Virus record (IMG/VR): IMGVR_UViG_3300025018_000075
Location: 1 to 35,053 of that record
Source: a virus
Taxonomy: Duplodnaviria > Caudoviricetes
Direction: 5' to 3' (one strand)
DNA: 35,053 nt
Shown: positions 2,077 to 35,053 of the stretch, one piece after another
Numbering within the stretch: position 1 is the stretch's first letter
Layout of the letters: each line of letters begins with the position of its first letter
Notes under the pieces: generated by a model
Databases searched by the model: none
Told to the model about the DNA's origin: nothing
Seen by the model: the letters and a program-made list of their open reading frames with translations, nothing else
Program-made: the position numbers and the translations under genes

Positions 2077-3201
2077 TTATTTTAATATTTTATCAAATAC
2101 TTTTTCCCATTTGTAAATGTGATCCTGTATTCTCCACTCTTTTTGAATATGATCATAAGCATTCTGGCCTATTTTATCCCTTAATTCCTCACTCTTAATC
2201 AATTTATCTAACTTTTTAACCCATTGATTGGTATTAGAGGCAAGAAAACCAGTTTTTCCGTCAGTTATCGTCTTAACTCCCTGTATTTTTTTGTAATAAG
2301 GGTAAACTTTTGAAGCTACCGCTGGGATCTTAAAGGTCGCGTATTCCATCCATTTGATATGGCTCTTATTGCGGTTAAACTCGTCATTGATCAGCGGACA
2401 AATACCGATATCCCATTTTCTTCGAGAAAGTGCGCGTGGATATTTTTTCCAGCTCGGAGTCCCACCAATAACCTTGACTCGGTTAAACATTTCATCGGTA
2501 AATTGATCAAATAGTTCTTTAATCATATAAAGTTCGATTCCGCCCATAAATTCCAAGTGCAGATTATGGTATCTATCCATTAAGATTTTTAGCGCTGGCA
2601 TAACAAGTTTCAAATCTCCTAAATGGGTCGTTGATCCTTGCCATCCGATAATAATCTTATTTCTATCGGCATTTTTTCGGTGGCTATATTTAAATTCTGC
2701 AAAGTCATGACAATTAGGCAAAACATCAGGGACTATTTTCTTTTTGTTGTGCTTCTTAGACCATTTTTCGTAATAATCTGCCAAAGGCTGAGTCGAAACG
2801 ATTAAATGAGTCGCAAGCGATAAATAAGCGCTTAGAATTCCTTTTTTTTGGCTTCCAGGATGATAATATTTATAACCTGGCTGATCTGGGCGCACTTCGA
2901 AATAGTTGTCATCAAGATCCACTATCAATGGTTTCTTAAAATGATTAGCCATGAAGCACAGCGCAGAGGCCGCTTGAGGGTTGTCCACCGCTTTGGTAAC
3001 TACTGCATCATATTCTGTAAAAAGTTTGGTAAAGATCTGGGCTAAATCGCCTGGCCAATCCTTGATTTCTTTTCCGATAATATCAATCTGATATTTCGTA
3101 ATATATTTGGCTGGTTGAATCAATCTGTAATAACCGACACCGCTATATTGTTTATCTTTAGTATTGTTCCAAGTGTTTTCTATGAATGCTATTTTTTTCA
3201 T
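2077..3201 (-). CDS. Glycosyltransferase, GT-B/GT4-like
   Basis: GVGYYRL, DLDDN, IGWQGS..H..DL, DIGICPL..FN..KS.IKWMEY, DGKTGFLA. Confidence 0.9.
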   Translation of the reverse strand: MKKIAFIENTWNNTKDKQYSGVGYYRLIQPAKYITKYQIDIIGKEIKDWPGDLAQIFTKLFTEYDAVVTKAVDNPQAASALCFMANHFKKPLIVDLDDNYFEVRPDQPGYKYYHPGSQKKGILSAYLSLATHLIVSTQPLADYYEKWSKKHNKKKIVPDVLPNCHDFAEFKYSHRKNADRNKIIIGWQGSTTHLGDLKLVMPALKILMDRYHNLHLEFMGGIELYMIKELFDQFTDEMFNRVKVIGGTPSWKKYPRALSRRKWDIGICPLINDEFNRNKSHIKWMEYATFKIPAVASKVYPYYKKIQGVKTITDGKTGFLASNTNQWVKKLDKLIKSEELRDKIGQNAYDHIQKEWRIQDHIYKWEKVFDKILK

Positions 3202-3222
3202 ATTTAATTGCCCTCTTAATAA

Positions 3223-3945
3223 TTAAATAATATCTATAATTCGTCTGATCCCTTGCTCCAGGCTGACTTTAGTCTTTACACACCCTACTGGAGTGTCCTG
3301 GATATAAGAATCAGGTTTATTTATGTAAATTGGTTCGATCTTAGTGCCTAAAACTTTATTAATGATTGAAATTACTTCATTAAAGCTGGTATTTACTCCA
3401 GTTCCAAGCTCCACAATTCCAGTCCGACCTTCGGCCACTAGATCCATAATGTTGTCGATGACATCGTCTATGAAAATGAAATCTCTCGTCTGAGTTCCAT
3501 CTCCCCAAATCACTGGGCGCTCTCCGCGCTTCATTTGCTTACACCACTGATAAATGATTGATGCATACTCTCCCTTATGTCCTTCTCCTGGCCCATAGGA
3601 GGCTGAAATTCGCAATCCTAGAGCTTTTAGACCATAGGCCTGGTGTATTTCCTCCAAACAAGCTTTACAGCGCGCATAGGAGTTATTTTTGTTGTTTACA
3701 GTCGCGCTAGATGGATAAATCAGGTAGGCTCCATGTTCTTTGCAGAACGATGCCATTGATAGGAAGCTTCCGATAGTTTCTCTTAGGCAATAGTCTAAAT
3801 TCTTATTAAACAGAATGACCGATGATGGAGATCCAAAGAAATATACCGCCTCGTTTCCTTTTTGAGGGGTGGTGTCGAATTCTCCCAGTCTTTTAGCAAT
3901 CTCTTTTCCGAGAAAGCCATTTCTGCCTAATAAACAATTTTTCAT
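3223..3945 (-). CDS. NAD-dependent nucleotide-sugar epimerase/dehydratase (extended SDR, HldD-like motif)
   Basis: GxxGFLG, SSA, YARCK (YxxxK), YGPGEGHKG..ASII, GDGTQTRDFIFIDD. Confidence 0.9.
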   Translation of the reverse strand: MKNCLLGRNGFLGKEIAKRLGEFDTTPQKGNEAVYFFGSPSSVILFNKNLDYCLRETIGSFLSMASFCKEHGAYLIYPSSATVNNKNNSYARCKACLEEIHQAYGLKALGLRISASYGPGEGHKGEYASIIYQWCKQMKRGERPVIWGDGTQTRDFIFIDDVIDNIMDLVAEGRTGIVELGTGVNTSFNEVISIINKVLGTKIEPIYINKPDSYIQDTPVGCVKTKVSLEQGIRRIIDII

Positions 3946-4568
3946 AAATATTTTTTCCTAGTTTGCTCGGCTTGCGCCAGCTGCTCGCCTGTTATTTTTT
4001 GAGTGATCTGCCCTTCATGGACTGTGTAATTTGCTAACACTCTGTCGGTCCATATTGGTTCGTATTTTTTACCTATTCTTAGCCAATATTCGTAATCTGA
4101 TGTTAAGTCTTGGTCCTCGCACATACCCCCTAGTTCGTTATACAAATCTCGTTTCCAATAAACTGCTGGCTGTGGGACTATGTTGTTTTGCTTCAATCTC
4201 TCGTAGTTATAAGTTTCTCCGTATAATTGATCCCCCATCAGAATTCTACCGACTAACCATTTATGACCTCCGATGTTGTCTATCACGAATCTGAATGTCC
4301 CAGGCGCTATCAAATCGTCATCATTGGCCCAGACAAATATATCTCCTGTCGCTTTCGCCATCGCTTGGTTCATCGCATCTGTAATTCCTCGGTCCCTGCC
4401 GCCTATATATCTGATCCGAGCATCTTTAGGGAGTAAATGCTCGATTGAATCTCCGCCATCCTTAACTATTATTTCGAAATTGTCATAATCCTGAGCGAGA
4501 ATTGCCTCAACCGCCTTAACGATGAAGTCTGGTCGGTTAAAAGTTGGCATGAAAGCAGAAATCTTCAT
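3942..4568 (-). CDS. Glycosyltransferase family 2
   Basis: ISAFMPTFNR, EIIVKDGG, DRGITDAMN, NDDD, DYEYWLR. Confidence 0.92.
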   Translation of the reverse strand: MKISAFMPTFNRPDFIVKAVEAILAQDYDNFEIIVKDGGDSIEHLLPKDARIRYIGGRDRGITDAMNQAMAKATGDIFVWANDDDLIAPGTFRFVIDNIGGHKWLVGRILMGDQLYGETYNYERLKQNNIVPQPAVYWKRDLYNELGGMCEDQDLTSDYEYWLRIGKKYEPIWTDRVLANYTVHEGQITQKITGEQLAQAEQTRKKYL

Positions 4569-5134
4569 AAATTTTCATATATTGCATGGTAAATTGATTG
4601 GTTCCCCTTGTCGTTTCTCTCGATCATGCTATCTAGGAGCTTAAATCCCTTCAAATACTTCTTAACCATGTCCTCATCCCATAGATCATAATGGCATGGG
4701 CTTAAATAGTCATCGAAATTAACCTGGAAATACAATTTACAACCTTTTTTAAGCACTCGCTTGATTTCTGAGATCATTTTATCTGGATTCGGAGTATGGT
4801 CGATCACATTACAGCAGAAAACATAGTCGAAATAGTCCTTTGGGAAAGGTATTTCCTCTCCGCTGGCGGTCAAATAAGCTACATTTCCATCCTTTTTATA
4901 GTCATAAATCTCATTATACTTGTCATTTAAAGGGTCTATGGCTACTATCTGATTCTTTAATCCGCTAAACACCGACACTAATCCATTACCTAGATCAAGG
5001 CCTATTCCATCGCGGTCAGGCAAATCAGGAAAGAATTTCATCTTTATTTTTCCGTCAGCGACTCTAAACTCTGGATAGGCTTCCGAATAAATGCTTCTCC
5101 AAAAATCTAGTTCGTGTGTTTGCTTAATCTCCAT
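4565..5134 (-). CDS. Class I SAM-dependent methyltransferase
   Basis: LDLGNG motif I, AIDP, GEEIPFPKDYFDYVFCCNVIDH, EIKRVLK. Confidence 0.9.
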   Translation of the reverse strand: MEIKQTHELDFWRSIYSEAYPEFRVADGKIKMKFFPDLPDRDGIGLDLGNGLVSVFSGLKNQIVAIDPLNDKYNEIYDYKKDGNVAYLTASGEEIPFPKDYFDYVFCCNVIDHTPNPDKMISEIKRVLKKGCKLYFQVNFDDYLSPCHYDLWDEDMVKKYLKGFKLLDSMIERNDKGNQSIYHAIYENL

Positions 5135-5396
5135 ATTTTAGATCTCGATATAGGGGACTTATTACTAAGGGGATCCCTAGTTCTCGGCATGAATTAACTT
5201 TCTCAGGGACATTTCTCACATCCCAAACAAACAAGTGGATCAAATCGTATTTTAACATCTCTGCTTGGCTCTCGCGGTATTTATCGATTATATCAACTTC
5301 TAGTCCCAGTTTCCTGAGGCTCTCCGCTGTCTTCTGGACCTGGATAAAGTCCCCACCGATTCCGTCTATTGGCCTTGTCCATAATAACACCTTCAT
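5124..5396 (-). CDS. Truncated GT4 N-terminal-domain paralogue (90 aa)
   Basis: MKVLLWTRP..IGGDFIQVQKTAESL aligns with MKILYTNRP..IGGDYVQMLKTAEHL of 5293..6321. Confidence 0.75.
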   Translation of the reverse strand: MKVLLWTRPIDGIGGDFIQVQKTAESLRKLGLEVDIIDKYRESQAEMLKYDLIHLFVWDVRNVPEKVNSCRELGIPLVISPLYRDLKYGD

Positions 5397-6321
5397 AAAT
5401 TTCTTTTATTTCCTGGGCTACATTTTCCCATAAATAATGTCTGACTAAATCGCTTGGGCTTCCAATAAGCTCCGATCTTAGGGTGTCCTTCTTCTTAATC
5501 GATGTTTCAATCGCGGCCTTAATGCTTTCTTGGTTATCAAACTCGCATAAAGTAACACAAGCTGGTTTCCATTCGCTATGGTCCGTTAAAACAATACTGC
5601 AATCCTGGGCCATCGCTTCCATTACTACTAAGCTCATGATCTCAGCGCGTGATGCTAGGCACATTACCTCACAAGTCGCGTAGAGATTGATCAGTTCTTT
5701 CTGGTTCTGGGGACCAATTAAGATCCCTCCTTCGGCCTCGACTAATTTACTATATTCTTCATCGTATCTTTCGCCAGCGCAGATATATTTCTTTCCTAAT
5801 TCTTTACAGGCTTTAGCTGTCGCGAGCTGACCCTTAGAAGGTTCGACTCTGCCGACAGTCAGAACAAATTTCTCATTAGCTTTTACTCTCGGTTTCTTAA
5901 ACCAGGATTTATCGATTCCGTTCATTACGAAGTGGACTTTCTTTCGATCTATTTTTAAATGTCTTTCTGCTCTAGCCAGTTCGCCTTCATTTAAGAAAAT
6001 AAGCGCATCCGCCACATCGGCCATGATTTGCTGTTGGTCATAAGGAATAAATTGATCACTTTCATGATAAATCATAGAAACTACTAAAGGTTTTTTATGG
6101 ATCTCAGCCATTATCACTGCGTATTTGGCCCAGATCATACTAAAATTCCAAGTATGAATGATATCAAATTCTCGGACCCTGATCGCTGGACTTAAGAGGG
6201 GAGTTTCGATTATTTCGATCTCCATCCCTAAGTTACCTAAATGCTCGGCTGTCTTTAACATCTGGACATAATCTCCACCGATCCAAGCGCTCTGAGGTCT
6301 GTTTGTATATAAAATCTTCAT
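5293..6321 (-). CDS. Glycosyltransferase family 4
   Basis: GGD, DIIH, NGID, VGRVEPSKG, SRAEIMSLVVMEAMA (E-x7-E). Confidence 0.92.
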   Translation of the reverse strand: MKILYTNRPQSAWIGGDYVQMLKTAEHLGNLGMEIEIIETPLLSPAIRVREFDIIHTWNFSMIWAKYAVIMAEIHKKPLVVSMIYHESDQFIPYDQQQIMADVADALIFLNEGELARAERHLKIDRKKVHFVMNGIDKSWFKKPRVKANEKFVLTVGRVEPSKGQLATAKACKELGKKYICAGERYDEEYSKLVEAEGGILIGPQNQKELINLYATCEVMCLASRAEIMSLVVMEAMAQDCSIVLTDHSEWKPACVTLCEFDNQESIKAAIETSIKKKDTLRSELIGSPSDLVRHYLWENVAQEIKEIYEGVIMDKANRRNRWGLYPGPEDSGEPQETGTRS

Positions 6322-12680: not shown

Positions 12681-12709
12681 AGTATAAAACATTATTTGGT
12701 TTGACACAA
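12681..12709 (-). promoter_or_regulatory. Leftward sigma70-type promoter for the morphogenesis operon
   Basis: TTGTGT-17 nt-TATACT on the minus strand. Confidence 0.6.
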
Positions 12710-12719
12710 TAGTAAAAAC

Positions 12720-12737
12720 TGTGGATAATTATCCACA
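12720..12737. promoter_or_regulatory. Adjacent inverted pair of perfect DnaA boxes
   Basis: TGTGGATAA (12720-12728) immediately followed by TTATCCACA (12729-12737). Confidence 0.85.
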
Positions 12738-12747
12738 AGTTAAGCAC

Positions 12748-12776
12748 TTGACAAACAATCTTACATGCGCTAAGAT
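12748..12776 (+). promoter_or_regulatory. Rightward sigma70 promoter for the replication operon
   Basis: TTGACA-17 nt-TAAGAT. Confidence 0.75.
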
Positions 12777-18593: not shown

Positions 18594-19163
18594 ATGCCAC
18601 AACATAGATTTTGTAAAATTTGTGGGAAAGATTTTATACCAAAAAGCAATTCTAAAGGAATATACTGCTCATTAAAATGTTCTTATTCTGATAAAGAAAG
18701 AATGAAAAATTTAGGAGAACGACACAGAATAAATGTTGGGAACGCAAAGAGGGGGAAAAAATTTACCGAACAACAGAAAATTGGTATGAGAAAACCAAAA
18801 TCAGAACAACACAAAATTAATCTTCGTTTAGCAAAAAATGGAAGTTGGACTGGGAATAAAAACCCGCGCTGGAAAGGTGGGGTTTCTGTTTTAAGATGTT
18901 TAATAAGGGGATGCTTTGAGTATAGACTTTGGCGCTCTGATGTATTTAAAAGAGATAATTATACCTGTCAGCATTGCGGAAATAATAAAGGACATAATCT
19001 TAATGCCGACCATTACCCTAATAGTTTTGCTGATATTTTAAGTAAAAATAAAATAAAATCTATAGAGGATGCTTTAAGTTGTGTTGAGATCTGGGATATA
19101 AATAATGGAAGAACACTATGTATAGATTGCCATAAAAAAACAAAAAACTATGGAAAAGCCTAA
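18594..19163 (+). CDS. HNH homing endonuclease with NUMOD3-like motifs
   Basis: CKICGK..YCSLKC, SEQHK, NPRWKGG, WRSDVFKRDNYTCQHC, ADH..NGRTLCIDCH. Confidence 0.9.
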   Translation: MPQHRFCKICGKDFIPKSNSKGIYCSLKCSYSDKERMKNLGERHRINVGNAKRGKKFTEQQKIGMRKPKSEQHKINLRLAKNGSWTGNKNPRWKGGVSVLRCLIRGCFEYRLWRSDVFKRDNYTCQHCGNNKGHNLNADHYPNSFADILSKNKIKSIEDALSCVEIWDINNGRTLCIDCHKKTKNYGKA

Positions 19164-19719
19164 ATTTTCAATTTGTCTTATCGCTAGAAATGAGGAAAAT
19201 ACACTCCCAAGATTATTAAAGTCTTTACAAGATTTCAAAAGTTGTGGAGGGGAAGTTGTATGTTTAGATACTGGCTCAACTGATAAAACAGTCCAGGCGG
19301 CCAAAGACTGGGGATGCAAAGTCGAAGAAGTCGGAGATCGATTTGTCAGATATGTAGATTCTCAGATGGCCAAAAAGATTAATAGAAAATTCAAGGCTCC
19401 TCTAGATACTGGAGAAATAGTCAAAGACGGAGATAAGAATTTCGACTTCGCCTCAGCCAGAAACTACGCAGCTAGTCTTGCGAGTAATAATTTTATTTGG
19501 ACACCAGACTGTGATGAAATATTTACAAAATTAAATATTGAAGAAATAGATAAAAAAATAGAAGAAGGATTCGAGCAATTAGAATTTAATTTTGTATTTG
19601 CTCATGGCCCTAAGGGGGAAGAATTGATTAAGTTTATTCAATGCAAAGCATACGATAGAAGGAAATTAGAATGGCGGGGTATCATACACGAAGTATTATC
19701 TCCAATAGGTATTGCGTGA
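19150..19719 (+). CDS. GT2 glycosyltransferase, N-terminal part of a split GT2-TPR-GT2 gene
   Basis: SICLIARNEE, LDTGSTD.T, FDFASARN, DCDE, WRGIIHE, then a stop. Confidence 0.88.
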   Translation: MEKPKFSICLIARNEENTLPRLLKSLQDFKSCGGEVVCLDTGSTDKTVQAAKDWGCKVEEVGDRFVRYVDSQMAKKINRKFKAPLDTGEIVKDGDKNFDFASARNYAASLASNNFIWTPDCDEIFTKLNIEEIDKKIEEGFEQLEFNFVFAHGPKGEELIKFIQCKAYDRRKLEWRGIIHEVLSPIGIA

Positions 19720-19740
19720 AGTTCTATAATATGCTATAAT
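19712..19740 (+). promoter_or_regulatory. Internal sigma70 promoter of the HNH cassette
   Basis: TTGCGT-17 nt-(TGc)TATAAT; the GT stop codon TGA overlaps the -35. Confidence 0.7.
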
Positions 19741-19766
19741 TTTAATATAAAATAATATTTAAAATT

Positions 19767-20255
19767 ATGACAAAAAGCGAAGCATTAAAATTAAGATGGG
19801 AAAACGGAACTTTTAAAGGAACAACTGGAAGAAAAATGTCTGACACAGAGAAAGAAAAACATAGTGTTGCGCTAAGAGGAAAAATGCCAAAAAATTTGGA
19901 AATGTTAAATGCTAATAAATTTGGCAAAAATAATCCTATGTGGGGAAAAACCACTAGCGATTTACAAAAATCTGTAATGAGAGCTAGGGTGGGAGAATTA
20001 CACCCAAATTGGAAAGGAGATGATGTTGGTTATTGTGGTTTACACGATTGGTTAAAAAAAAATGAAGGGTCGGCTAATAAATGCGAAAATCTTGATTGCT
20101 CAAAAGACGGAAAGAAAAAATTTGCTTGGGCGAATATAACAGGAATTTATAAAAGAGAAAGAAAACACTGGGCTATGTTATGTGTAACTTGCCATAATAG
20201 ATACGATAAAAAGAAAATAAAGTTAAATATTAATAATAAGATATATGGAAATTAA
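19767..20255 (+). CDS. NUMOD3-containing HNH-like homing endonuclease
   Basis: GRKMSDTEKEK.S, NPMWGK, HPNWKGD.VGY.GLHDWL, CENLDC, WAN..G.Y, LCVTCH..YD. Confidence 0.85.
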   Translation: MTKSEALKLRWENGTFKGTTGRKMSDTEKEKHSVALRGKMPKNLEMLNANKFGKNNPMWGKTTSDLQKSVMRARVGELHPNWKGDDVGYCGLHDWLKKNEGSANKCENLDCSKDGKKKFAWANITGIYKRERKHWAMLCVTCHNRYDKKKIKLNINNKIYGN

Positions 20256-21492
20256 GAGAACTTTATTATCAGAAGATATTGTTAAAATAGAACACTACCA
20301 AAACGAAAGCACTGATCGCAAAGGTTATCTAGTCGGCCTGGCAATAGACTGCTTCGAAAATCCCAATAAAGACAGAAACTCTCACTACTTCGCCAGAGAA
20401 TTAATGTATAAAGGATTTACTCATTCTGCTATCAAAGAATTTGAGCGCTATTTGACTATTGGCTGGTGGGCCGCAGAAAGAAGCCAATCTCTAATATTCA
20501 TCGGAGATTGTCTTATGCAACTAGGGAAAGAAAAAGAAGCCCTGGATTATTACCAGCGCGCCTACTTAGAATGCTCTGACCGCAGAGAGCCATTATTAAG
20601 ACTGGGAAAATACTTTTTTGATAAACAAGACTGGCCCAAAGCTAGATTTTATTTAGAAGGATCTCTCCCTATAAAATACTCTGGTTTTTATGCTGATGAC
20701 ATGAGCCACTATGGGGACTACCCTTACGGAATGCTTTATGCTGTCTGTTACCGATTAGGGGACTACGAAAAAAGCAAAGAGTATTTCAACGAGGCCCTTC
20801 GATTAAGTCCAGATAATGAAACCTATAAAAAAGAGCAGAAATTCTATGAAGACTACCCAGAAGATCTTCCGACTATTAGCATCCTCATCCCTACTCTAGG
20901 CCGACCAGAAGGCTTAAAACGATGCCTGGATAGTATAGACATGATCAAATACCCTAAAGATAAATTAGAAGTCTTATCGGAGGAAGACTCTCCTCGAATG
21001 GGAGTCGCTAAAAGATTAAATAGCCTATTCCTGAAAAGTAAAAACAAATGGATTGTTTACGGATCAAACGACATCGAGTTTACTCCAGATTGTCTTTTAG
21101 AAGCAGTCAAAGAAACAGGACAGAATAATCTGATCGCTTTTAACACTGGGGAGTTATTACCAGATAAAGGAAATATCTGCGAGCATTTTATGATTAACAG
21201 AGATTATGTAGTGCTTGAGTTAGATGGAAAAATATTTGATGAAGATTTCAACCATATCGGAGTAGATAATTTGCTCTGGGCCAGATGCCAATTCAAAACC
21301 AGGGCAGAAAATGCAATCATCCACCATTATCATTTTTCTCGCGGAGGGAAGATCGATCCTATTTATGAATTAGGATGGTCTGAGGTAGAAAATGATCGTA
21401 AAATTTTAACTAAAAAAATGGAGGAGCTGAATCATGGGAAAAAATCGTCATCACTACGACCCTCCGAAATCAAGGAGAAAGGGACAGAGTAA
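20245..21492 (+). CDS. C-terminal part of the split glycosyltransferase (TPR repeats plus second GT2 domain)
   Basis: Starts with the KIEHYQ end of GT2, TPR-like helices (YFARELM, WAAERSQS, RREPL), then ISILIPTLGRPEGL..CLDSI and SNDIEF. Confidence 0.85.
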   Translation: MEIKRTLLSEDIVKIEHYQNESTDRKGYLVGLAIDCFENPNKDRNSHYFARELMYKGFTHSAIKEFERYLTIGWWAAERSQSLIFIGDCLMQLGKEKEALDYYQRAYLECSDRREPLLRLGKYFFDKQDWPKARFYLEGSLPIKYSGFYADDMSHYGDYPYGMLYAVCYRLGDYEKSKEYFNEALRLSPDNETYKKEQKFYEDYPEDLPTISILIPTLGRPEGLKRCLDSIDMIKYPKDKLEVLSEEDSPRMGVAKRLNSLFLKSKNKWIVYGSNDIEFTPDCLLEAVKETGQNNLIAFNTGELLPDKGNICEHFMINRDYVVLELDGKIFDEDFNHIGVDNLLWARCQFKTRAENAIIHHYHFSRGGKIDPIYELGWSEVENDRKILTKKMEELNHGKKSSSLRPSEIKEKGTE

Positions 21493-23869: not shown

Positions 23870-23914
23870 AGTATACACCTGTCGCATACACCTGTCAAGT
23901 GGTAGTTATCCACA
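23870..23914 (-). promoter_or_regulatory. sigma70 promoter with internal direct-repeat operator and upstream DnaA box
   Basis: TTGACA (23898-23893)-17 nt-TATACT (23875-23870); ATACACCTGTC at 23873-23883 and 23886-23896; DnaA box at 23906-23914. Confidence 0.85.
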
Positions 23915-23942
23915 AACAAAAAAGAGCCTGTTAAAGCTCTTT
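23914..23942 (-). terminator. Intrinsic terminator ending the morphogenesis operon
   Basis: AAAGAGC/GCTCTTT stem with T-rich tails on both strands. Confidence 0.65.
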
Positions 23943-23994: not shown

Positions 23995-24363
23995 TTATTC
24001 ACTTAAAGCCTTGTCCGTCTGATCAGTTTGTTGCTTGAATTCTTCTTCCGATATTTCAATTAGTGATTCATTATCATCCATGACACTTTGTATAACAAAA
24101 TTTCCATTCTGCTCTACTCCGTCATTATAAGCGGTTATTCTCAATCCCTCGTCTTCGATCATTTCTGATTTGACTGGAATTTCATCATCGAGGAGAAAGA
24201 ATCTAGGCATCCCCATCTCAGGAGCTAGTAACCGAGTCATGGCGCTTTCTGTTTGACCAACCTCATCAAGTTCTTCCTTTTCTTCCTGAGGCGGACCAGA
24301 TTGCAAAACCTTATCGACTTCCTCCGCGCTTATAGGGACTACTATTCTTTTTGCTTTTTCCAT
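23995..24363 (-). CDS. Small acidic protein, candidate immunity protein for the upstream synthetase domain
   Basis: 122 aa, E/D-rich, starts 4 nt after the 939 aa gene; the function is inferred from position only. Confidence 0.6.
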   Translation of the reverse strand: MEKAKRIVVPISAEEVDKVLQSGPPQEEKEELDEVGQTESAMTRLLAPEMGMPRFFLLDDEIPVKSEMIEDEGLRITAYNDGVEQNGNFVIQSVMDDNESLIEISEEEFKQQTDQTDKALSE

Positions 24364-24367
24364 ATAT

Positions 24368-27187
24368 TTAATCGTTTAATAGTTTTTTAACCTTTTTCCC
24401 TCGCTCATAAACACTTCCGAATTGACCAACATTTTCTCCAGTTCCTCCAGTTGGGACTTCCTGTCCTTTGCCAAGATCATAGATAGCCTTCTGGTTGAAT
24501 TCTTCTCCGAGGATCTTAGCTCTACCAAGCCCAGCAGGAGTAACAACAACATCTAAATAAAGCTGTCCAGTTGATTCGTCTAACCATCCACCGATAGAAT
24601 TTTCAGGTTTTTTTAGAAGATCCTGATTGTTTCTGATGAATTTATAGATATCAGTCGGAGTAACTTTACCATCAAATATCTTGCTGCGCTCTGGATAAAT
24701 TGAAACTGAATAGACACTCTTGCCAGCTAGGTCAGAATTCCCCTTAATATTAAAGGTAAAACCGCCTTCGTTAGCTTTCGTGGCCAAGTCTTTCAAAATT
24801 GATTTATTCGCGTTAGCATTTATATTATATACTGCGGATCTATTTTTGTCAAGTCCAACAAAGTTTTGCTTGACTGGAATATAGTTTTTACTGTCTTTAG
24901 ACCAGGCCTCGCTATAATTCGCATCCTGTTTTTTACTTAGCTCATAAAGCTTAATCCGCTCCTCAGAAGTTAGATCCCTGACTGCTCGCGCTTCTTTTAT
25001 AACTCTAGATTCCTCGTATAGGATGTGGTTGGCTTTCTTAGCCCTGGCCATGTTAGCAGGAATAATCTGAATTTCTCCAGTAGTTCCGTTTGCTAGTTTA
25101 ACTTTGACAGTAATATCTCGATATCCCAAAGTCGGATCTTCGAGCCTGTTCTCAATCTTAATAACATTATAGTCCTTTTTAATATCGTCTAATAAATTAA
25201 GAGTCTTATTGAAATCGCTAGTTACAAAGTAGCCACGATTCATGTCTGTAATCTTTTCAAAGTTTCCGTTGTATTTATTGTAGGCTTTTTCGATAGCGCG
25301 GCCATCAGACTTGATGTTAGAAGAAGACAAGATCCCATACTTTCTTTCCAGGGTTAAAAACTTCTCAGAAAATTCCTGGGAATCAATATAAACATTTTTC
25401 TTAAAATTCATGTAGGTAGCTTTTTCCTCAGGACTCATTCTTTCTAACAGAGCGCGCTGGGCCTCGACATTCTGGTTAGTTTTAGTTGGATAGATTTTGA
25501 TTCCGTCTAATTCGGTGTTGCGGATAACTCCTTGCTTTTTTAAGAGAGCGATAGCTTCTTCCTGGGTATATAATTTAGATCCTAGATTGACTTTGTCAGA
25601 AGTCGAGTATTTACCCCCTACTGGGATATATTTAGGCGCTTCTAAAAGCCCAGCATTAGGGTTTTTAGGCATCGCTGGTTTTAAAATCTTAGGAGTTTTT
25701 GCTTTCTGTTTTTCGATAGCCTCAAAAATCTTTTTAACATACCGATTTGGGTTATTAAGATATTTATAAACCTCTTTTATCCCTCGGCCACCAAGCCCTC
25801 TAATCAAACTGGTAGGATCGATCACACCAGCTAAAATATCTCCACCAGTAAAAATATCTGTAAAGTCGATTAATCCTTTTTGATTCCTGCGTAGTTCAAG
25901 CGCCACCTGTCTAGCGACATCCTTTTCGATAGATTTAAGAGCGCCATATTCTAGCCTTAGAGGGCGATAAGCCTCCCCAGTGATCCTAGTTACCAGCTCA
26001 TCGAGGGATTGATTCAATTTGGAGGCCACAGAGGCATCCAGGCGAGCTTTAGCTTTATCGACACGACCTGCAAAGAACCCACCGAGGCTCTCATTCAAAT
26101 CTTTTATTCTAGATTGAATAACCTCAGGCGCTTTTCCTCCCAGTTCGCTCATTTCCGATATTAAATCATTGGCATACTTTCTGATCTGGGGGTTATAAGA
26201 AACATCCTCAGTAACTTTTACCAAGTCATCGATAATCGACTTAGCATTGAAAGTCGCGCCTTCTTTTCCAGCTCCGACAGCTAGATCGTTGTATTTTTTG
26301 AATATAGATGTTTTTACATCCTGAATAGCCTGGAGTAATTCTTGTCTGTTCTCAGGAAGTTTTTTACTCAGGTTACCAAGCTCGTCAGTTAGTTTAATGG
26401 CTTCTTTGTTATCCACGATTACCTCAAAAGCCTTGATAGCATCATCGTAATATTTACCAGAAGCAATATCCCCTATTTTACCTGAAAAACTAGGCTTGAT
26501 AGCCTTAGCGATATAATTGGTTAAATCTTGTTTGATAGGTTGGATGATCTTACTAAAACCAGCTCCAGCTCCGCCAATAGCGCCACCAAAAACAGCTCCG
26601 CCTAAACCTCCTTTGATAGCTCCCGCGAAAGCATTCTCGTCTTCTTGCAAAGCCTGACCAAATCCCATTAAAGATCCAGCCTCGGCTCCTATTTTAGCTC
26701 CCTGGCCGACAGATCTTAATATTCTAGCGCCAGTCCCTAATTGTTTAAGGCCCTGAGCGGCTGGTCCGACTGGAATAAACCATGATCCAATCTCAGTTCC
26801 AGTTCCGAATATTTCTTTATTGAATTGGCCAAATTGCTTTCCCATCGAAGCATTCGGATCTACTTTTTTTCCTAGAGGATCTACTTTTCCGAAATAACCA
26901 AAATTCATTGGCTCTGTCAGAGTTTTGTTAGCGCCAGCGGTATCTCCTTTGGCCAGCTGAACAGCCGATTTAATTGCGGTATATGGCGCAGACAAAGTTT
27001 TTAGAAAAGGCTTGGCTATTCCCTGGGCCAAAGACTGAATAAAACCAGGTTGAGCCACCTCAGAAGTTTTCTCAGGTGTTGCAGGTTGATTTATTCCTAG
27101 CTTATTAGCGACTTCTTCGATATCTTGAGGGGTTGGATTCCCATCAAAATTAACCTGAGTCCCATTAGAAAATTTTATGATAGCCAT
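24368..27187 (-). CDS. Large ejection-type/polyvalent virion protein with RelA/SpoT-like synthetase and C-terminal SAM-lyase-like domains
   Basis: N-terminal IKFSNG..V.F...PTPQDIEE, Gly/Ala hydrophobic segments, helical core; IKSDGRAIEK..Y, ITDMNR, GYRD, GEIQI; then GGWLD..TG.LYLDV..LG..FNQKAIYDL. Confidence 0.8.
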   Translation of the reverse strand: MAIIKFSNGTQVNFDGNPTPQDIEEVANKLGINQPATPEKTSEVAQPGFIQSLAQGIAKPFLKTLSAPYTAIKSAVQLAKGDTAGANKTLTEPMNFGYFGKVDPLGKKVDPNASMGKQFGQFNKEIFGTGTEIGSWFIPVGPAAQGLKQLGTGARILRSVGQGAKIGAEAGSLMGFGQALQEDENAFAGAIKGGLGGAVFGGAIGGAGAGFSKIIQPIKQDLTNYIAKAIKPSFSGKIGDIASGKYYDDAIKAFEVIVDNKEAIKLTDELGNLSKKLPENRQELLQAIQDVKTSIFKKYNDLAVGAGKEGATFNAKSIIDDLVKVTEDVSYNPQIRKYANDLISEMSELGGKAPEVIQSRIKDLNESLGGFFAGRVDKAKARLDASVASKLNQSLDELVTRITGEAYRPLRLEYGALKSIEKDVARQVALELRRNQKGLIDFTDIFTGGDILAGVIDPTSLIRGLGGRGIKEVYKYLNNPNRYVKKIFEAIEKQKAKTPKILKPAMPKNPNAGLLEAPKYIPVGGKYSTSDKVNLGSKLYTQEEAIALLKKQGVIRNTELDGIKIYPTKTNQNVEAQRALLERMSPEEKATYMNFKKNVYIDSQEFSEKFLTLERKYGILSSSNIKSDGRAIEKAYNKYNGNFEKITDMNRGYFVTSDFNKTLNLLDDIKKDYNVIKIENRLEDPTLGYRDITVKVKLANGTTGEIQIIPANMARAKKANHILYEESRVIKEARAVRDLTSEERIKLYELSKKQDANYSEAWSKDSKNYIPVKQNFVGLDKNRSAVYNINANANKSILKDLATKANEGGFTFNIKGNSDLAGKSVYSVSIYPERSKIFDGKVTPTDIYKFIRNNQDLLKKPENSIGGWLDESTGQLYLDVVVTPAGLGRAKILGEEFNQKAIYDLGKGQEVPTGGTGENVGQFGSVYERGKKVKKLLND

Positions 27188-27201: not shown

Positions 27202-29658
27202 TTATTGAATAACCTGCCATCCTAAACCAGTGGAAGTTTGTCCGCTGTTATTATCTCCTGTCGGATAATAAGTTGATTGATTAGGCGCGGTATATCCAGA
27301 AAAAATATCAGAGAACCCCATTTCTTGTAAAATCTTCATTGATTTATCAGAAATAAGTTGAGGCGGTTGTTGATTAGGAAGATTTATAATAGTTTCCCAT
27401 GACCCAGCCAAAGCTTCGAGTCTGCCTCTCATCAATTCTAAAAGGGTATTAATTGAAGTCTGCAACTGAGCTGGAGAATTACTTGAGCTGATATTTTCTC
27501 TCCACTGTTTGATTTCTTGATCAGTAGCTCCAGTCCCCTTAAATACATTAGCCATTTCTCCTTCTACCGCAGTGGCGGCTGTCTTGAATTTAGTAATACG
27601 AGGATCTCCGACTGCATTTAAAGTAGCATTTCCGATAGCATTCCATAATCTCAAACCACCATTTTCCAATTCAATCGAGGCATCGTTTAGTTCTTTAAGA
27701 TGCTGAATCGCGGTGTTAAGAGAAACCACATTTTTGTAATCCTTTCCACCAGGAGCGAAAGACTTTTTAGCCTGAGTTACCTGAGCATAAGAATTAATAT
27801 CAAATTCTGGGTTGATTAACTGCGCGAGATTAATAATAGATTGTCTTTTATTTCCTCTTAGGGAGGAAACTTTAGAGATATCTAGCCTATACTCAGCTAA
27901 ACCTTGAGCGACATTTCTGTCTTCTTGAGTAGCTGAAAGCCAAGCAGGTCGATCTATTGGATCTAGTGAGCTTAGAATATCTTGATTGTATTGCTGACCT
28001 TCTGACATACCACCAGCAGAAATTGAAGTTCCGCTCTCTTTTTTAGCCATAGCTTGAGCTAAAGTATCAATATTGATCTGACTAATAGGCGTATTCGCGT
28101 TTGCTCCAGTTTGTTGAGATATCTGATTTATATAAAGATTTGTATCATTTTCTGTCGGAGGAGCATATTTATTAATAAATTGTCCGAGAGTCAGTCCGCG
28201 AGAAGCATCGAGTTGTATTTGAGATTTTAAAGCTTCGTAGCCTGCTTCTGGAGTAGCAAACTTGGCAAAGCCTCCTTCTCCTTGAGTTGCTCCAGCCTGA
28301 CCGACAAATCTTAAATTTCCTGGGTTATTATTCCTATAAGCTAAAGTATTTTGTGGGATTGTAACCGCCCCACCGCCACCGAAGCTAGTATCAGACTCAG
28401 AGGCCTGTATTGTCGTAATTTCTCCAGTTACATTATTAAGAACAAAGTTTGTCCCTGTGATTGGAGTAAATTTATTTGTTTGAAGATAAGTCCCTGCGGC
28501 CTTTAGCGCATCCATTGGAGTCTTCGCAGTAGCGATCTTGTTTAGAACATCAGCAGTGGCTCCGTTTTTAGCAGCTTCTAGGCCCACACTTAGAACAGCA
28601 TTACGATCATCTTTGGCTTGATTTACTAGCGCAGTTCTTTCATTCAAAACAGTTACCAGCTGATCGGCCTGGGTCTTCTGAGCCGAAGTCAAATCTTGAT
28701 AATTAAGATCTATTTGAGCTTTTAATTTATTGATTTCGTTTTCTATCGGCTGGAATTCCATCGTTACAGTATCTAAAACAGTTTGCTGTGCAGTCGCGAT
28801 ATTACCTTGAATAGTTTGCGCCATTGAGGTTAGAGCGCCTACTTCCGCAGCTTGCTGTCTTCGGATCAGGCCTTCTTGACCACCAATCATAGAAGACATA
28901 ACAGCTCGGCCAGTATTATCGACACTAGCTCTTTCAAAAACTGAGTTTTTGGCAGATATCTGGGTCATTAAATCGGCTAAGTTCTTTTGCATTTCTGGGA
29001 ATCCAGATTCTTTTAACAACTCTGACTGACGAATCCCGAGCTGTCCGTATTTATCGATATTAGCTCCGTAATTATCAATCAAAGATTTTCTTTCTGCGGC
29101 CATAGCATCAGCCGAGGCTTTTAGTTCTTCTTGCTGTTTTTTAAGCCCAGCGTAATAAGGATCTAAATCATAATTAGGCACAGTCGATTCTGGTGTTTTA
29201 ATATCTGTAACATTCTGATTTAAATTATCTGTATTAATAGCTGTCGGACTTACTAACAAATCTGGTCGTTGGCCCAAATCTTTAGCGCCTTTATATTGAG
29301 AAACTAAAGTCGCGACATCTGGGATCTTAGTATTAGTGGCAGCATCATAGATATCGTTACCAACTCGATAAATTGATTTTGTAGGAGCAGTAGGCACAGA
29401 GAAAGAAGCTCCGCTGTTTACTGGTTGAATGGCTGACGAAGGAGTCAGCGAAGGTTGCGGAGTTTTTATAACACTGGGATTCAAATTCAATGCTGATCCT
29501 TTTAACAGGGAAGAAAGGTTAGCCTGAGCAGCAGCAGAGGTATTTAACTGAGGAGCTGGAGTCCCAGGAGAGTAAATAGCAGGAGAACTATACTTGATAG
29601 GTCCGCTGGTATTTAAAGTAGGTATTTTATTATTTAGTGTTGGTAATTTAATAGCCAT
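27202..29658 (-). CDS. Large ejection-type virion protein with lysozyme-like RNNNPGN domain
   Basis: P/S/T-rich N-terminus, coiled-coil, then AYRNNNPGNLRF..FAKFATPEAG..KYAPPTENDT..Y..AKKESG (~28025-28345). Confidence 0.8.
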   Translation of the reverse strand: MAIKLPTLNNKIPTLNTSGPIKYSSPAIYSPGTPAPQLNTSAAAQANLSSLLKGSALNLNPSVIKTPQPSLTPSSAIQPVNSGASFSVPTAPTKSIYRVGNDIYDAATNTKIPDVATLVSQYKGAKDLGQRPDLLVSPTAINTDNLNQNVTDIKTPESTVPNYDLDPYYAGLKKQQEELKASADAMAAERKSLIDNYGANIDKYGQLGIRQSELLKESGFPEMQKNLADLMTQISAKNSVFERASVDNTGRAVMSSMIGGQEGLIRRQQAAEVGALTSMAQTIQGNIATAQQTVLDTVTMEFQPIENEINKLKAQIDLNYQDLTSAQKTQADQLVTVLNERTALVNQAKDDRNAVLSVGLEAAKNGATADVLNKIATAKTPMDALKAAGTYLQTNKFTPITGTNFVLNNVTGEITTIQASESDTSFGGGGAVTIPQNTLAYRNNNPGNLRFVGQAGATQGEGGFAKFATPEAGYEALKSQIQLDASRGLTLGQFINKYAPPTENDTNLYINQISQQTGANANTPISQINIDTLAQAMAKKESGTSISAGGMSEGQQYNQDILSSLDPIDRPAWLSATQEDRNVAQGLAEYRLDISKVSSLRGNKRQSIINLAQLINPEFDINSYAQVTQAKKSFAPGGKDYKNVVSLNTAIQHLKELNDASIELENGGLRLWNAIGNATLNAVGDPRITKFKTAATAVEGEMANVFKGTGATDQEIKQWRENISSSNSPAQLQTSINTLLELMRGRLEALAGSWETIINLPNQQPPQLISDKSMKILQEMGFSDIFSGYTAPNQSTYYPTGDNNSGQTSTGLGWQVIQ

Positions 29659-34084: not shown

Positions 34085-35053
34085 TTAATCTGCTTTTTGA
34101 ACACCGATGACAGAACCATCGCTTCCGTAAGTCCAAAGATAAAACGATGTTGGCAAACAAAACCCTGGAAGGTCGGCCACGATAGCCTGCCATCCTGTTA
34201 GAGTTCCATTAAACCCAGCTTTAACTACATACGGGGCAGAACCAGCTCTTGCGTAAATACCATTTTCATTTACCTTTGTTTTAGCGGAATAAGGAGAGCC
34301 AGTAATCGTAATATCCGTTCCGTGAGTTAAAGTAGTCCCCGATAAAGTGTATGGTCTAAGCCCTGTTGCTGATTGGTCTGTAATCCAAAATTTCCCATCA
34401 CCATATCCAATAAAGAAATCCGCACTTACCAACGCCGTTCCTGAAATTGTAAGTTCTGCCCAGTTTAAAGCAGACGATATATCGCTTGATGTAGCACACC
34501 TAAATATTTTACCATTAGTCCCATCGCCCAAAAGAACATAGACGTATCCATCAACTGTCATCGCATAATGAATAACTGTCGCCGAAGCCCAGATGTCTGT
34601 CATTACTATTGTTTGAGCATTACCACCAAGATATTTTAAGAAATGTGTATATTGCGAGCCGACATTTATTTTTACATATTTTGTCGCTCCATTATCAGCA
34701 AAAGACATATTAGAAATATCGTCTGAATACACGAATACAAAATTAGTTGTATATCCGCCAATAAAGAAAGGCTCTGAAATACCACTCGGACCAGTCGGGC
34801 CAGTCGCTCCAGCCGCTCCTCCTGGTCCTGTGTAACCAGTAGGACCTGTCGCACCAGCAGCTCCGTTTGGCCCAGTATATCCTGTGGGGCCAGTTACATT
34901 AGAAGCCGCGCCATTGGGTCCAGTATAACCTGTATATCCAGTAGGACCTGTGGCCCCAACTGCTCCATTCGGACCTGTGTAACCAGTAAAACCAGTGTAG
35001 CCTGTCGGTCCTGTTACAGTAGAGGCTGCTCCATTCGGACCTGTGTAACCAGT
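34085..35053 (-). CDS. Collagen-like fibre protein, 3' part with C-terminal beta-rich head domain
   Basis: G-X-T repeats at ~34781-35053 run in frame into the 34085..34732 ORF. Confidence 0.88.
34927..35053. repeat. Terminal overlap, copy 2
   Basis: Identical to 1-127. Confidence 0.95.

Follow-up and report, generated by a model that had tools for sequence, protein, structure and literature searches.

A Tas1-like RelA/SpoT synthetase on a likely podovirus ejection protein, with an adjacent candidate immunity gene and a putative internal promoter

Organization of the locus

The window analyzed in this study is the whole virus record IMGVR_UViG_3300025018_000075 (Caudoviricetes), which is 35,053 bases long, carries direct terminal repeats, and constitutes a complete, podovirus-like genome. 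We examined a gene encoding a 939-amino acid (aa) protein (24368..27187), in which an ejection-type scaffold (aa 1 to ~500, 25688..27187) is followed by a RelA/SpoT-type synthetase (aa ~600-765, 24893..25390) and by a second domain that we designated GGW (aa ~791-917, 24437..24817). An open reading frame (ORF) for a 122-aa candidate immunity protein (23995..24363) is located 4 nt past the stop codon. A perfect sigma-70 consensus, TTGACA-17-TATAAT, lies between the two cargo domains and is directed towards the small gene (24824..24852). All of these features, and the motifs described below, are on the minus strand.

The synthetase domain is a divergent member of the Tas1-like group

The initial annotation had recognized four synthetase blocks in the 939-aa ORF, and each was located where it had been placed: IKSDGRAIEK (aa 625, 25286-25315), ITDMNR (aa 646, 25235-25252), GYRDIT (aa 688, 25109-25126), and GEIQI (aa 704, 25064-25078). 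A fifth block, HILYE, was found at aa 721. The motifs follow the order of the SYNTH domain of RelA/SpoT homologs (RSH), with a basic motif 1, the catalytic Asp and Arg, the GY loop, and ExQ. Residue conservation was counted in the best 150 of 1080 representatives obtained by exhaustive search (E<=1e-3). K626, R630, K634, D648, R651, G688, Y689, R690, D691, E705, Q707, H721, and Y724 are all intact in the window copy, and each is kept in 139-150 of the 150 rows. The absence of the His of canonical GYxSxH, also pointed out earlier, was confirmed and found to be family-wide; GYRD was present in 129/150 relatives, and none of the 147 rows tallied at the motif-3 column (of 150) had a His there. Since GYRD is kept in most rows, the missing His is a family trait and not a sign of decay.

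When a 64-row family profile was compared with the PDB, it matched 20 RSH chains at E<=2.2e-5 (26 PDB hits in all). Tas1 was the best match (E 3.8e-34, 122 bits), followed by an RSH chain at 48 bits, and SaSAS scored 41.5 bits. The synthetase is therefore nearer Tas1 than the (p)ppGpp synthetases (122 vs <=48 bits), and the RelA/SpoT assignment held in this profile-based check against the structure library. Tas1 was also the best PDB sequence match of the query alone (E 0.0011) and the top match of a profile of its 16 closest relatives (E 3.6e-4). Because these two scores are weak, the strong Tas1 score of the family is owed to more distant rows, and the window protein is placed on a branch that diverges from the other Tas1-like synthetases. 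PF04607, like the rest of Pfam, did not match the 939-aa query itself; it was matched by 15/50 scanned relatives. The carriers among these 50 relatives included MuF proteins (2), extracellular contractile injection system (eCIS) core proteins (4, DUF4157/eCIS), and polyvalent proteins bearing an ADP-ribosyltransferase (2). At the sequence level, these results confirm an intact RelA/SpoT-type synthetase of the Tas1/Apk-like group.

The window synthetase has KS..RA..K...Y.G....D..R, GY, GEIQ, AK, and H..YE in common with its best PDB match, Tas1/Apk1 of the Tas1-Tis1 pair from Pseudomonas aeruginosa PA14 (PDB 6OX6), but not the Tas1 insertion before H..YE. Tas1, in turn, is delivered between bacteria by a type VI secretion system PAAR protein and lacks the TN...Q extension and the GGW partner of the present clade. 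This extension is the clade-specific motif I.I.PT.TN.....Q located before the synthetase (aa 563-577, 25457..25501). Its regular expression matched 10/151 stored proteins, all 10 of them GGW-bearing.

The small-gene family accompanies the synthetase

The 122-aa protein has a core, RFF...G...EISEEE (aa ~45-110), which is the part common to its family, and an acidic N-terminal extension. In total, the protein contains 31 Asp and Glu against 11 Lys and Arg. A small acidic gene 4 nt downstream had been reported in the initial annotation. Its place and the acidity of the window copy were reproduced, whereas acidity did not hold as a family trait, as the 82-aa relatives are near balanced (14 Asp and Glu vs 12 Lys and Arg). 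Acidity was therefore rejected as an immunity signature, being peculiar in this strength to the window copy.

At two related loci, L003 and L004, an 82-aa gene lies 1 nt after the cargo gene. When every ORF of 76 loci was searched with a profile built from the L003, L004, and window proteins, the only further members were L012:6278-6541 and L013:5537-5905(-), each adjacent to a synthetase of the same clade. Scanning viral sequences with the small-protein family recovered only L003 and L004. The window protein alone detected the L012 member at E 5.5e-5 (3704 unique ORFs). Held out of the profile, the window protein scored E 0.027, the L012 member 4e-10, and the L013 member 2e-7.

With the GGW locus base set at 62 viral loci less 3 duplicates, the small-gene family was present at 5/6 distinct synthetase loci, and at 0/52 GGW-only loci and 0/3 scaffold-only loci. 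It was also found at 0/7 loci with a different MuF-like synthetase. The small gene, which had been read as an immunity-like partner, thus co-occurs with the domain and not independently of it, and a small cognate gene is linked to the toxin as in Apk systems. Since the family tracks the synthetase (5/6 vs 0/52 loci), these results support an immunity role, and the small protein is a candidate immunity protein of the synthetase, likely its antidote.

The sixth synthetase locus, L014, is a 1.9-kb contig with the synthetase end only and has no family member. A convergent HD_4-like gene is found there instead (L014:543-950(-)), with a SAH/Aph1-like match (E 9e-6) just under the cut-off, as expected for an Aph1-type hydrolase. 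A gene for a HAD-family phosphatase converges on the small gene at L003:6386-6892(-), L004:6365-6823(-), and L012:6465-6839(-) and could encode an alternative detoxifying enzyme. Its absence from the window rules it out as a required part of the module. Sequence and profile searches of the PDB gave nothing credible for the small protein, and its Atlas model (pLDDT 0.58) named no family and gave no usable feature match. The helix start E[IV]S/T.EE near the C-terminus may be common to the small protein and Tis1-like proteins.

A putative promoter lies inside the cargo gene

The 12/12 sigma-70 site is located inside the 939-aa coding sequence; a control in which the last 810 nt were recoded synonymously gave P=0.022. 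In the whole genome, two 12/12 sites were found (2/86 tiles) against 0.13 expected after shuffling. Past the small gene is a terminator-like hairpin with T-runs on both strands (23915..23942), which was flagged on the plus strand and whose minus-strand T-run was read. An 11/12 sigma-70 consensus on the minus strand (23870..23898) precedes the DUF7417 gene group and marks the downstream module boundary. As for the relatives, the P0003 protein retains the LDK....VYN spacing underlying the promoter. The small gene of L013, on the opposite strand, has its own 12/12 site just upstream, and that of L012 has a 10/12 site just before it. Conservation of the promoter across all relatives was rejected, as the synonymous control was not beaten.

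Because a putative 12/12 promoter is present inside the toxin gene, we infer that the host polymerase can transcribe the small gene apart from the late operon. Neutralization of the synthetase during assembly, the role first suggested for the small protein, is with such a promoter probably only part of the story.

The carrier is a likely ejection protein

The 939-aa gene and its upstream neighbor, encoding an 818-aa ejection-type protein (27202..29658, minus strand), are two large genes placed after the tail region. The 818-aa protein contains a transglycosylase-like domain (phrog_873, E 3e-25; phrog_7182, E 7e-15) that is common to internal virion and injection proteins, and it matches structural proteins of epsilon15 and SPN1S. 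One of its PHROG matches is labeled tape measure but spans the transglycosylase-like domain only. The N-terminus of the 939-aa protein gave a weak match (E 2.7e-4) to the internal virion protein phrog_342. No MuF match (PF04233) was obtained for aa 1-589 at E<=10, and neither an LPD nor any other Pfam domain was matched in the 939-aa protein. Gene placement, the transglycosylase partner, and the internal-virion match, weak for the scaffold itself, agree with the context of podovirus ejection proteins. The 939-aa protein is likely an ejection protein of a podovirus.

Three scaffold orthologs were usable (L005, L081, and L084) after exclusion of L082, in which the ORF is cut by the contig end, and of L083, a 26-residue match. 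L005 has another tail, L081 and L084 have no cargo, and the synthetase, GGW, and the small-gene family are all missing from the available DNA of all three. In two full-length relatives, the synthetase domain was 44-45% identical, compared to 31-34% for the whole protein. Since the three scaffold orthologs lack the domain, the synthetase is considered to be exchangeable cargo on an ejection-type scaffold. One scaffold ortholog was located on a contig of a Desulfococcaceae metagenome-assembled genome, and no terminase match was found on that contig. At L012:723-6243 and L013:519-5417, the synthetase is mid-protein in larger virion proteins, that of L012 being split into two genes.

GGW is a second cargo domain

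The synthetase is not the C-terminal domain of the protein. A separate domain of ~130 aa, GGW (phrog_17808), which the initial annotation had missed, comes after it, with conserved G866, W868, D879, and Q899. GGW was found in 19/150 synthetase relatives, including 14/14 with the KSD[GA]R motif, and in 16 of a 20-member clade (ultrafast bootstrap 83, 62 of 148 rows). In the 19 proteins, it was placed after the synthetase in 9 and before it in 10. Most of the 62 viral GGW loci have no synthetase, and the domain occurs there as a stand-alone protein of 113-159 aa or in proteins of up to 2,693 aa. GGW also has matches within annotated T7-like internal virion proteins, namely Syn5 gp45 and those of P60 and S-CBP42 (E 6e-5 to 4e-4), in line with the ejection-protein context of the carrier. 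It is thus a widespread unnamed phage family.

SAM lyases, which cleave S-adenosylmethionine (SAM), are known as early, non-virion proteins. The predicted GGW structure (pLDDT 91.4, pTM 0.82) has a beta-alpha-beta-beta-alpha-beta core, resembling the ferredoxin-like strand and helix order of these enzymes. G866, W/Y868, D/E879, and Q899 occur together in 39/40 rows, with a spacing of 13 from the Gly to the acid in 28/40, and they parallel G56, Y58, E69, and Q104 of Svi3-3, one of the SAM lyases compared together with T3 SAMase and Orf1 (PMC7877911). In contrast to the SAM lyases, which are trimers, GGW has Asp for Glu (Asp in 35/40 rows), Trp for Tyr, and a spacing from acid to Gln of 20 instead of 35, and lacks the Glu after the Gln (present in 1/40) (PMC7877911). 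No PF23780 or PDB sequence or profile match was found for GGW, a weak negative, as one filter also missed PF04607. An Atlas nucleoside-hydrolase cluster (TM 0.60) was not accepted, and the other Atlas matches were unnamed viral clusters. These results suggest that GGW probably shares the SAM-lyase fold; that it cleaves SAM is a tentative proposal with the odds somewhat against it. If it does, virion-delivered anti-restriction would be far commoner than recognized.

Stand-alone GGW proteins of 116-117 aa were observed in L034, L044, L045, L064, L067, and L073, several of them in ~100-kb phage contigs. In other loci (L031, L033, L037, and L025), GGW is fused to Nudix plus 2H phosphoesterase, ADP-ribosyltransferase, zeta-toxin kinase, or MuF domains, i.e., typical polyvalent cargo. 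A word-index search for stand-alone GGW proteins scored 0/45 candidates.

Proposed function and alternatives

We propose, with a probability of about 0.6, that the synthetase is likely ejected and gives a pulse of activity at entry, after which it is silenced by the adjacent small protein made from the internal promoter. The 939-aa protein would be packaged and then injected with the phage DNA. At entry, the synthetase would pyrophosphorylate purine nucleotides, most likely ATP to (p)ppApp. The small protein would be made early from the internal sigma-70 promoter and would bind and silence the synthetase. The net effect would be a short, self-limiting pulse that stalls ATP/GTP-dependent host functions or defenses at entry. 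The same inhibitor may protect the cell during late synthesis of new copies, and the trailing GGW domain may act as a second injected enzyme, possibly a SAM-cleaving one. Since cell delivery is expected of an ejection-type carrier, an entry-stage function is a natural hypothesis, and the internal promoter suggests a built-in timer.

Several observations weigh against this proposal. The query alone matches Tas1 only weakly, as do its 16 closest relatives, and the window copy joins the small-protein family only moderately. Because L003 and L004 are 90% alike, the five loci with the small gene amount to about four independent cases. In the cargo genes of L003, L004, and L012, the promoter-like sites of 10-11/12 fail the synonymous control (P 0.61, 0.17, and 0.66). 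No alarmone hydrolase was found in the window genome, where HD_4 had no match, a weak negative, as the filter used also missed PF04607. Searches by sequence and by profile linked the small-protein family neither to Tis1 nor to the small genes adjacent to other phage RSH toxins (probability 0.3-0.5% in profile comparisons with those beside MuF-type toxins), but BcTis1 itself is only 24% identical to Tis1 (PMC10083569). Motif 3, GYRDIT, is neither the GxN of Apk2 and Tas1 (GYSGVN in Tas1) nor SxH, and some Apk1-like enzymes make (p)ppGpp only, or both alarmones (PMC12691689).

The last two points concern the product of the enzyme. In Apk2, GxN takes the place of SxH, the guanine-recognizing motif of (p)ppGpp synthetases (PMC12226406), and SxH, which characterizes housekeeping RelP/RelQ, is absent from motif 3 of the window synthetase. 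The Apk1-like set yields (p)ppApp, (p)ppGpp, or both, VpEAS and AaEAS making (p)ppGpp only and SaEAS both (PMC12691689). It has been reported that pZFD antitoxins with a YXXY motif neutralize the toxSAS enzymes that target tRNA, and that Tis1-like antitoxins neutralize (p)ppApp synthetases (PMC11782079). No YXXY motif is present in the 122-aa protein, and no FaRel2 or CapRel chain was among the 26 PDB hits of the family profile. From these motifs and matches, (p)ppApp would be the purine-nucleotide product with roughly even odds, (p)ppGpp or both would come behind it, and pyrophosphorylated tRNA or another product would be unlikely; tRNA pyrophosphorylation looks like the least probable outcome.

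The alternative that survives best, although we consider it unlikely, is that the synthetase does not drain ATP but produces (p)ppGpp, or a mixture of alarmones, and thereby retunes host transcription or forces dormancy, the small protein limiting the dose. The departure of motif 3 from the Apk GxN signature and the products of VpEAS, AaEAS, and SaEAS are consistent with this, and an alarmone-like shut-down was proposed by Iyer et al. for polyvalent RelA/SpoT domains (PMC5512222). However, the SxH motif is missing, and the family is far nearer Tas1 than SaSAS or housekeeping RSH.

Kin competition or superinfection control is less probable again. Here the injected toxin would stall or kill entered cells unless a resident copy, through its internal promoter, provides constitutive expression of the immunity protein; such a scheme has been proposed for temperate-phage MuF toxin-immunity pairs. 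The small gene is indeed flanked by a host-type promoter and a terminator, the cargo is polymorphic on one scaffold, the relative L005 has an integrase-like ORF (by eye), and antagonism was raised as an open option for MuF toxins (PMC10083569). Nevertheless, no integrase was found in the complete window genome, again a weak negative because of the filter, and a toxin lethal at entry would block the productive infection of the phage itself unless quickly neutralized.

We regard it as quite improbable that the cargo acts from inside the cell and not from the particle, with the internal promoter driving early synthesis of GGW on its own and of the small protein, and the synthetase half being made late or processed but never injected. 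Past the promoter, TTG codons are in frame at aa 798 and 801; translation from these would yield a protein of ~140 aa, comparable to the stand-alone GGW proteins of 113-159 aa. TTG starts, however, are common by chance. Moreover, the layout is not general, as GGW is C-terminal in 9/19 proteins and N-terminal in 10/19, and the retention of the synthetase on a virion scaffold would be left unexplained. A catalytically dead relic beside an unrelated gene would account for the lack of a Pfam match and of the canonical His, but is very improbable, as all family-invariant residues are present, the domain is much better conserved than the scaffold (44-45% vs 31-34% overall), and the small-gene family tracks it.

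The preferred reading, an entry pulse silenced from within the toxin gene, has a bolder extension that we treat as speculative and, on balance, unlikely. Ejection proteins of podoviruses may be an unrecognized route for polymorphic toxin-immunity cargo, and this clade may inject a two-enzyme anti-defense warhead consisting of an ATP-draining (p)ppApp synthetase and a SAM-draining, SAM-lyase-like domain. Host RNA polymerase would then make the immunity protein from the promoter inside the toxin gene, so that the toxin would be active only until the phage DNA is read. Type I restriction and BREX depend on just these two cofactors, ATP and SAM.

Comparison with known systems

The closest parallel is Apk2 with IapK/BcTis1 and Aph1, which likewise combines a phage virion-linked carrier, a Tas1-like cargo, and a small downstream gene (PMC10083569, PMC12226406). 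Tis1-like genes come after Apk2 homologs (PMC10083569). The window differs in its ejection-type carrier in place of MuF, in GYRD in place of GxN, in the second domain after the synthetase, and in that no integrase was found; no match between the sequences of its small protein and Tis1 could be detected. Since it has neither MuF nor GxN, the window protein is not an Apk2. In Apk2 systems, the hydrolase is variably present (PMC10083569, PMC12226406); none was found in the window, and the relative L014 has the HD_4-like gene. Injection and phage benefit of phage-borne alarmone toxins are stated to be open for MuF/Apk2 (PMC10083569). In this study, the same kind of toxin-immunity pair was found on an ejection-type protein, in a phage for which no integrase was found.

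Polyvalent proteins include multidomain phage RelA/SpoT cases with proposed delivery at invasion, and domain order is shuffled in the relatives studied here as well. The cases described in PMC5512222 are from Spirochaetes, epsilon-proteobacterial (pro)phages, and MuF fusions, whereas the window has a dedicated small partner gene and no LPD was found. Exported alarmone synthetases (EAS) are Apk1-like synthetases on diverse export domains. The EAS carriers listed in section 9 of PMC12691689 are the Sec peptide, WXG/LXG, XopAD, MuF, DUF4157, and Rhs/PAAR, and a podovirus ejection protein is not among these. We found no report of an RSH toxin borne on an ejection protein, or of a tandem second domain, in the open-access literature, but members of the clade may be present in the supplementary lists that accompany PMC12691689 and PMC5512222.

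In the cultured Bordetella phage PHB04 (L079, MF663786.1, 3359-7369), the portal gene, an RSH-bearing gene, a 69-aa gene, and an annotated alarmone hydrolase gene are in a row, and this locus is an accessible Apk2-like parallel. A different, head-region RSH toxin was observed at L047:6761-9105 (also L049, L050, L056-L058, and L066), followed by a gene for an XkdF prohead protease that has a fused, immunity-like N-terminus of ~75 aa. These L047-type loci are immediately preceded by a GGW-bearing gene. A 10/12 promoter-like site was seen just upstream of the protease fusion gene in L047, L049, L056, and L058 but not in L066. A PDB sequence and profile search with the small domain of this type gave nothing credible.

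Genome setting and other observations

Pfam and PHROG scans of 39 window ORFs identified the small and large terminase, an SU10/P22-like portal, the capsid, and the adaptor, and matched no major-tail or sheath family. The capsid protein shares ~34% identity with its counterpart in Page and Pony, two Bacillus phages that we take to be podoviruses. A search for relatives of the 651-aa tail gene returned the same phage only.

A Shine-Dalgarno-like word was found at only 3/31 window gene starts, and the sigma-70 promoters are near-perfect consensus. Gene starts have A/T-rich leaders, many ending in ATATG (12701-12748, 16077). We take the combination of few Shine-Dalgarno motifs and sigma-70 consensus promoters to fit Patescibacteria. 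No member of the synthetase clade was found in GTDB genomes. The sequencing runs listed as carrying the window sequence are mostly aquifer metagenomes, one of which may be the source, and no RNA runs are listed among them. Four DNA runs compared with the window yielded short fragments, for which no letter differences were listed and in which the cargo was not swapped.

Genes for glycosyltransferases, an epimerase, and a methyltransferase are clustered between the capsid and adaptor genes (2077-6321, minus strand), and two further GT2/TPR genes are present in the early region (19150-21492, plus strand). The glycosyltransferase-type genes suggest virion or DNA glycosylation. A tail-fiber-like ORF with collagen-like G-x-T/GPTG repeats (34085-35053, minus strand) crosses the genome end.

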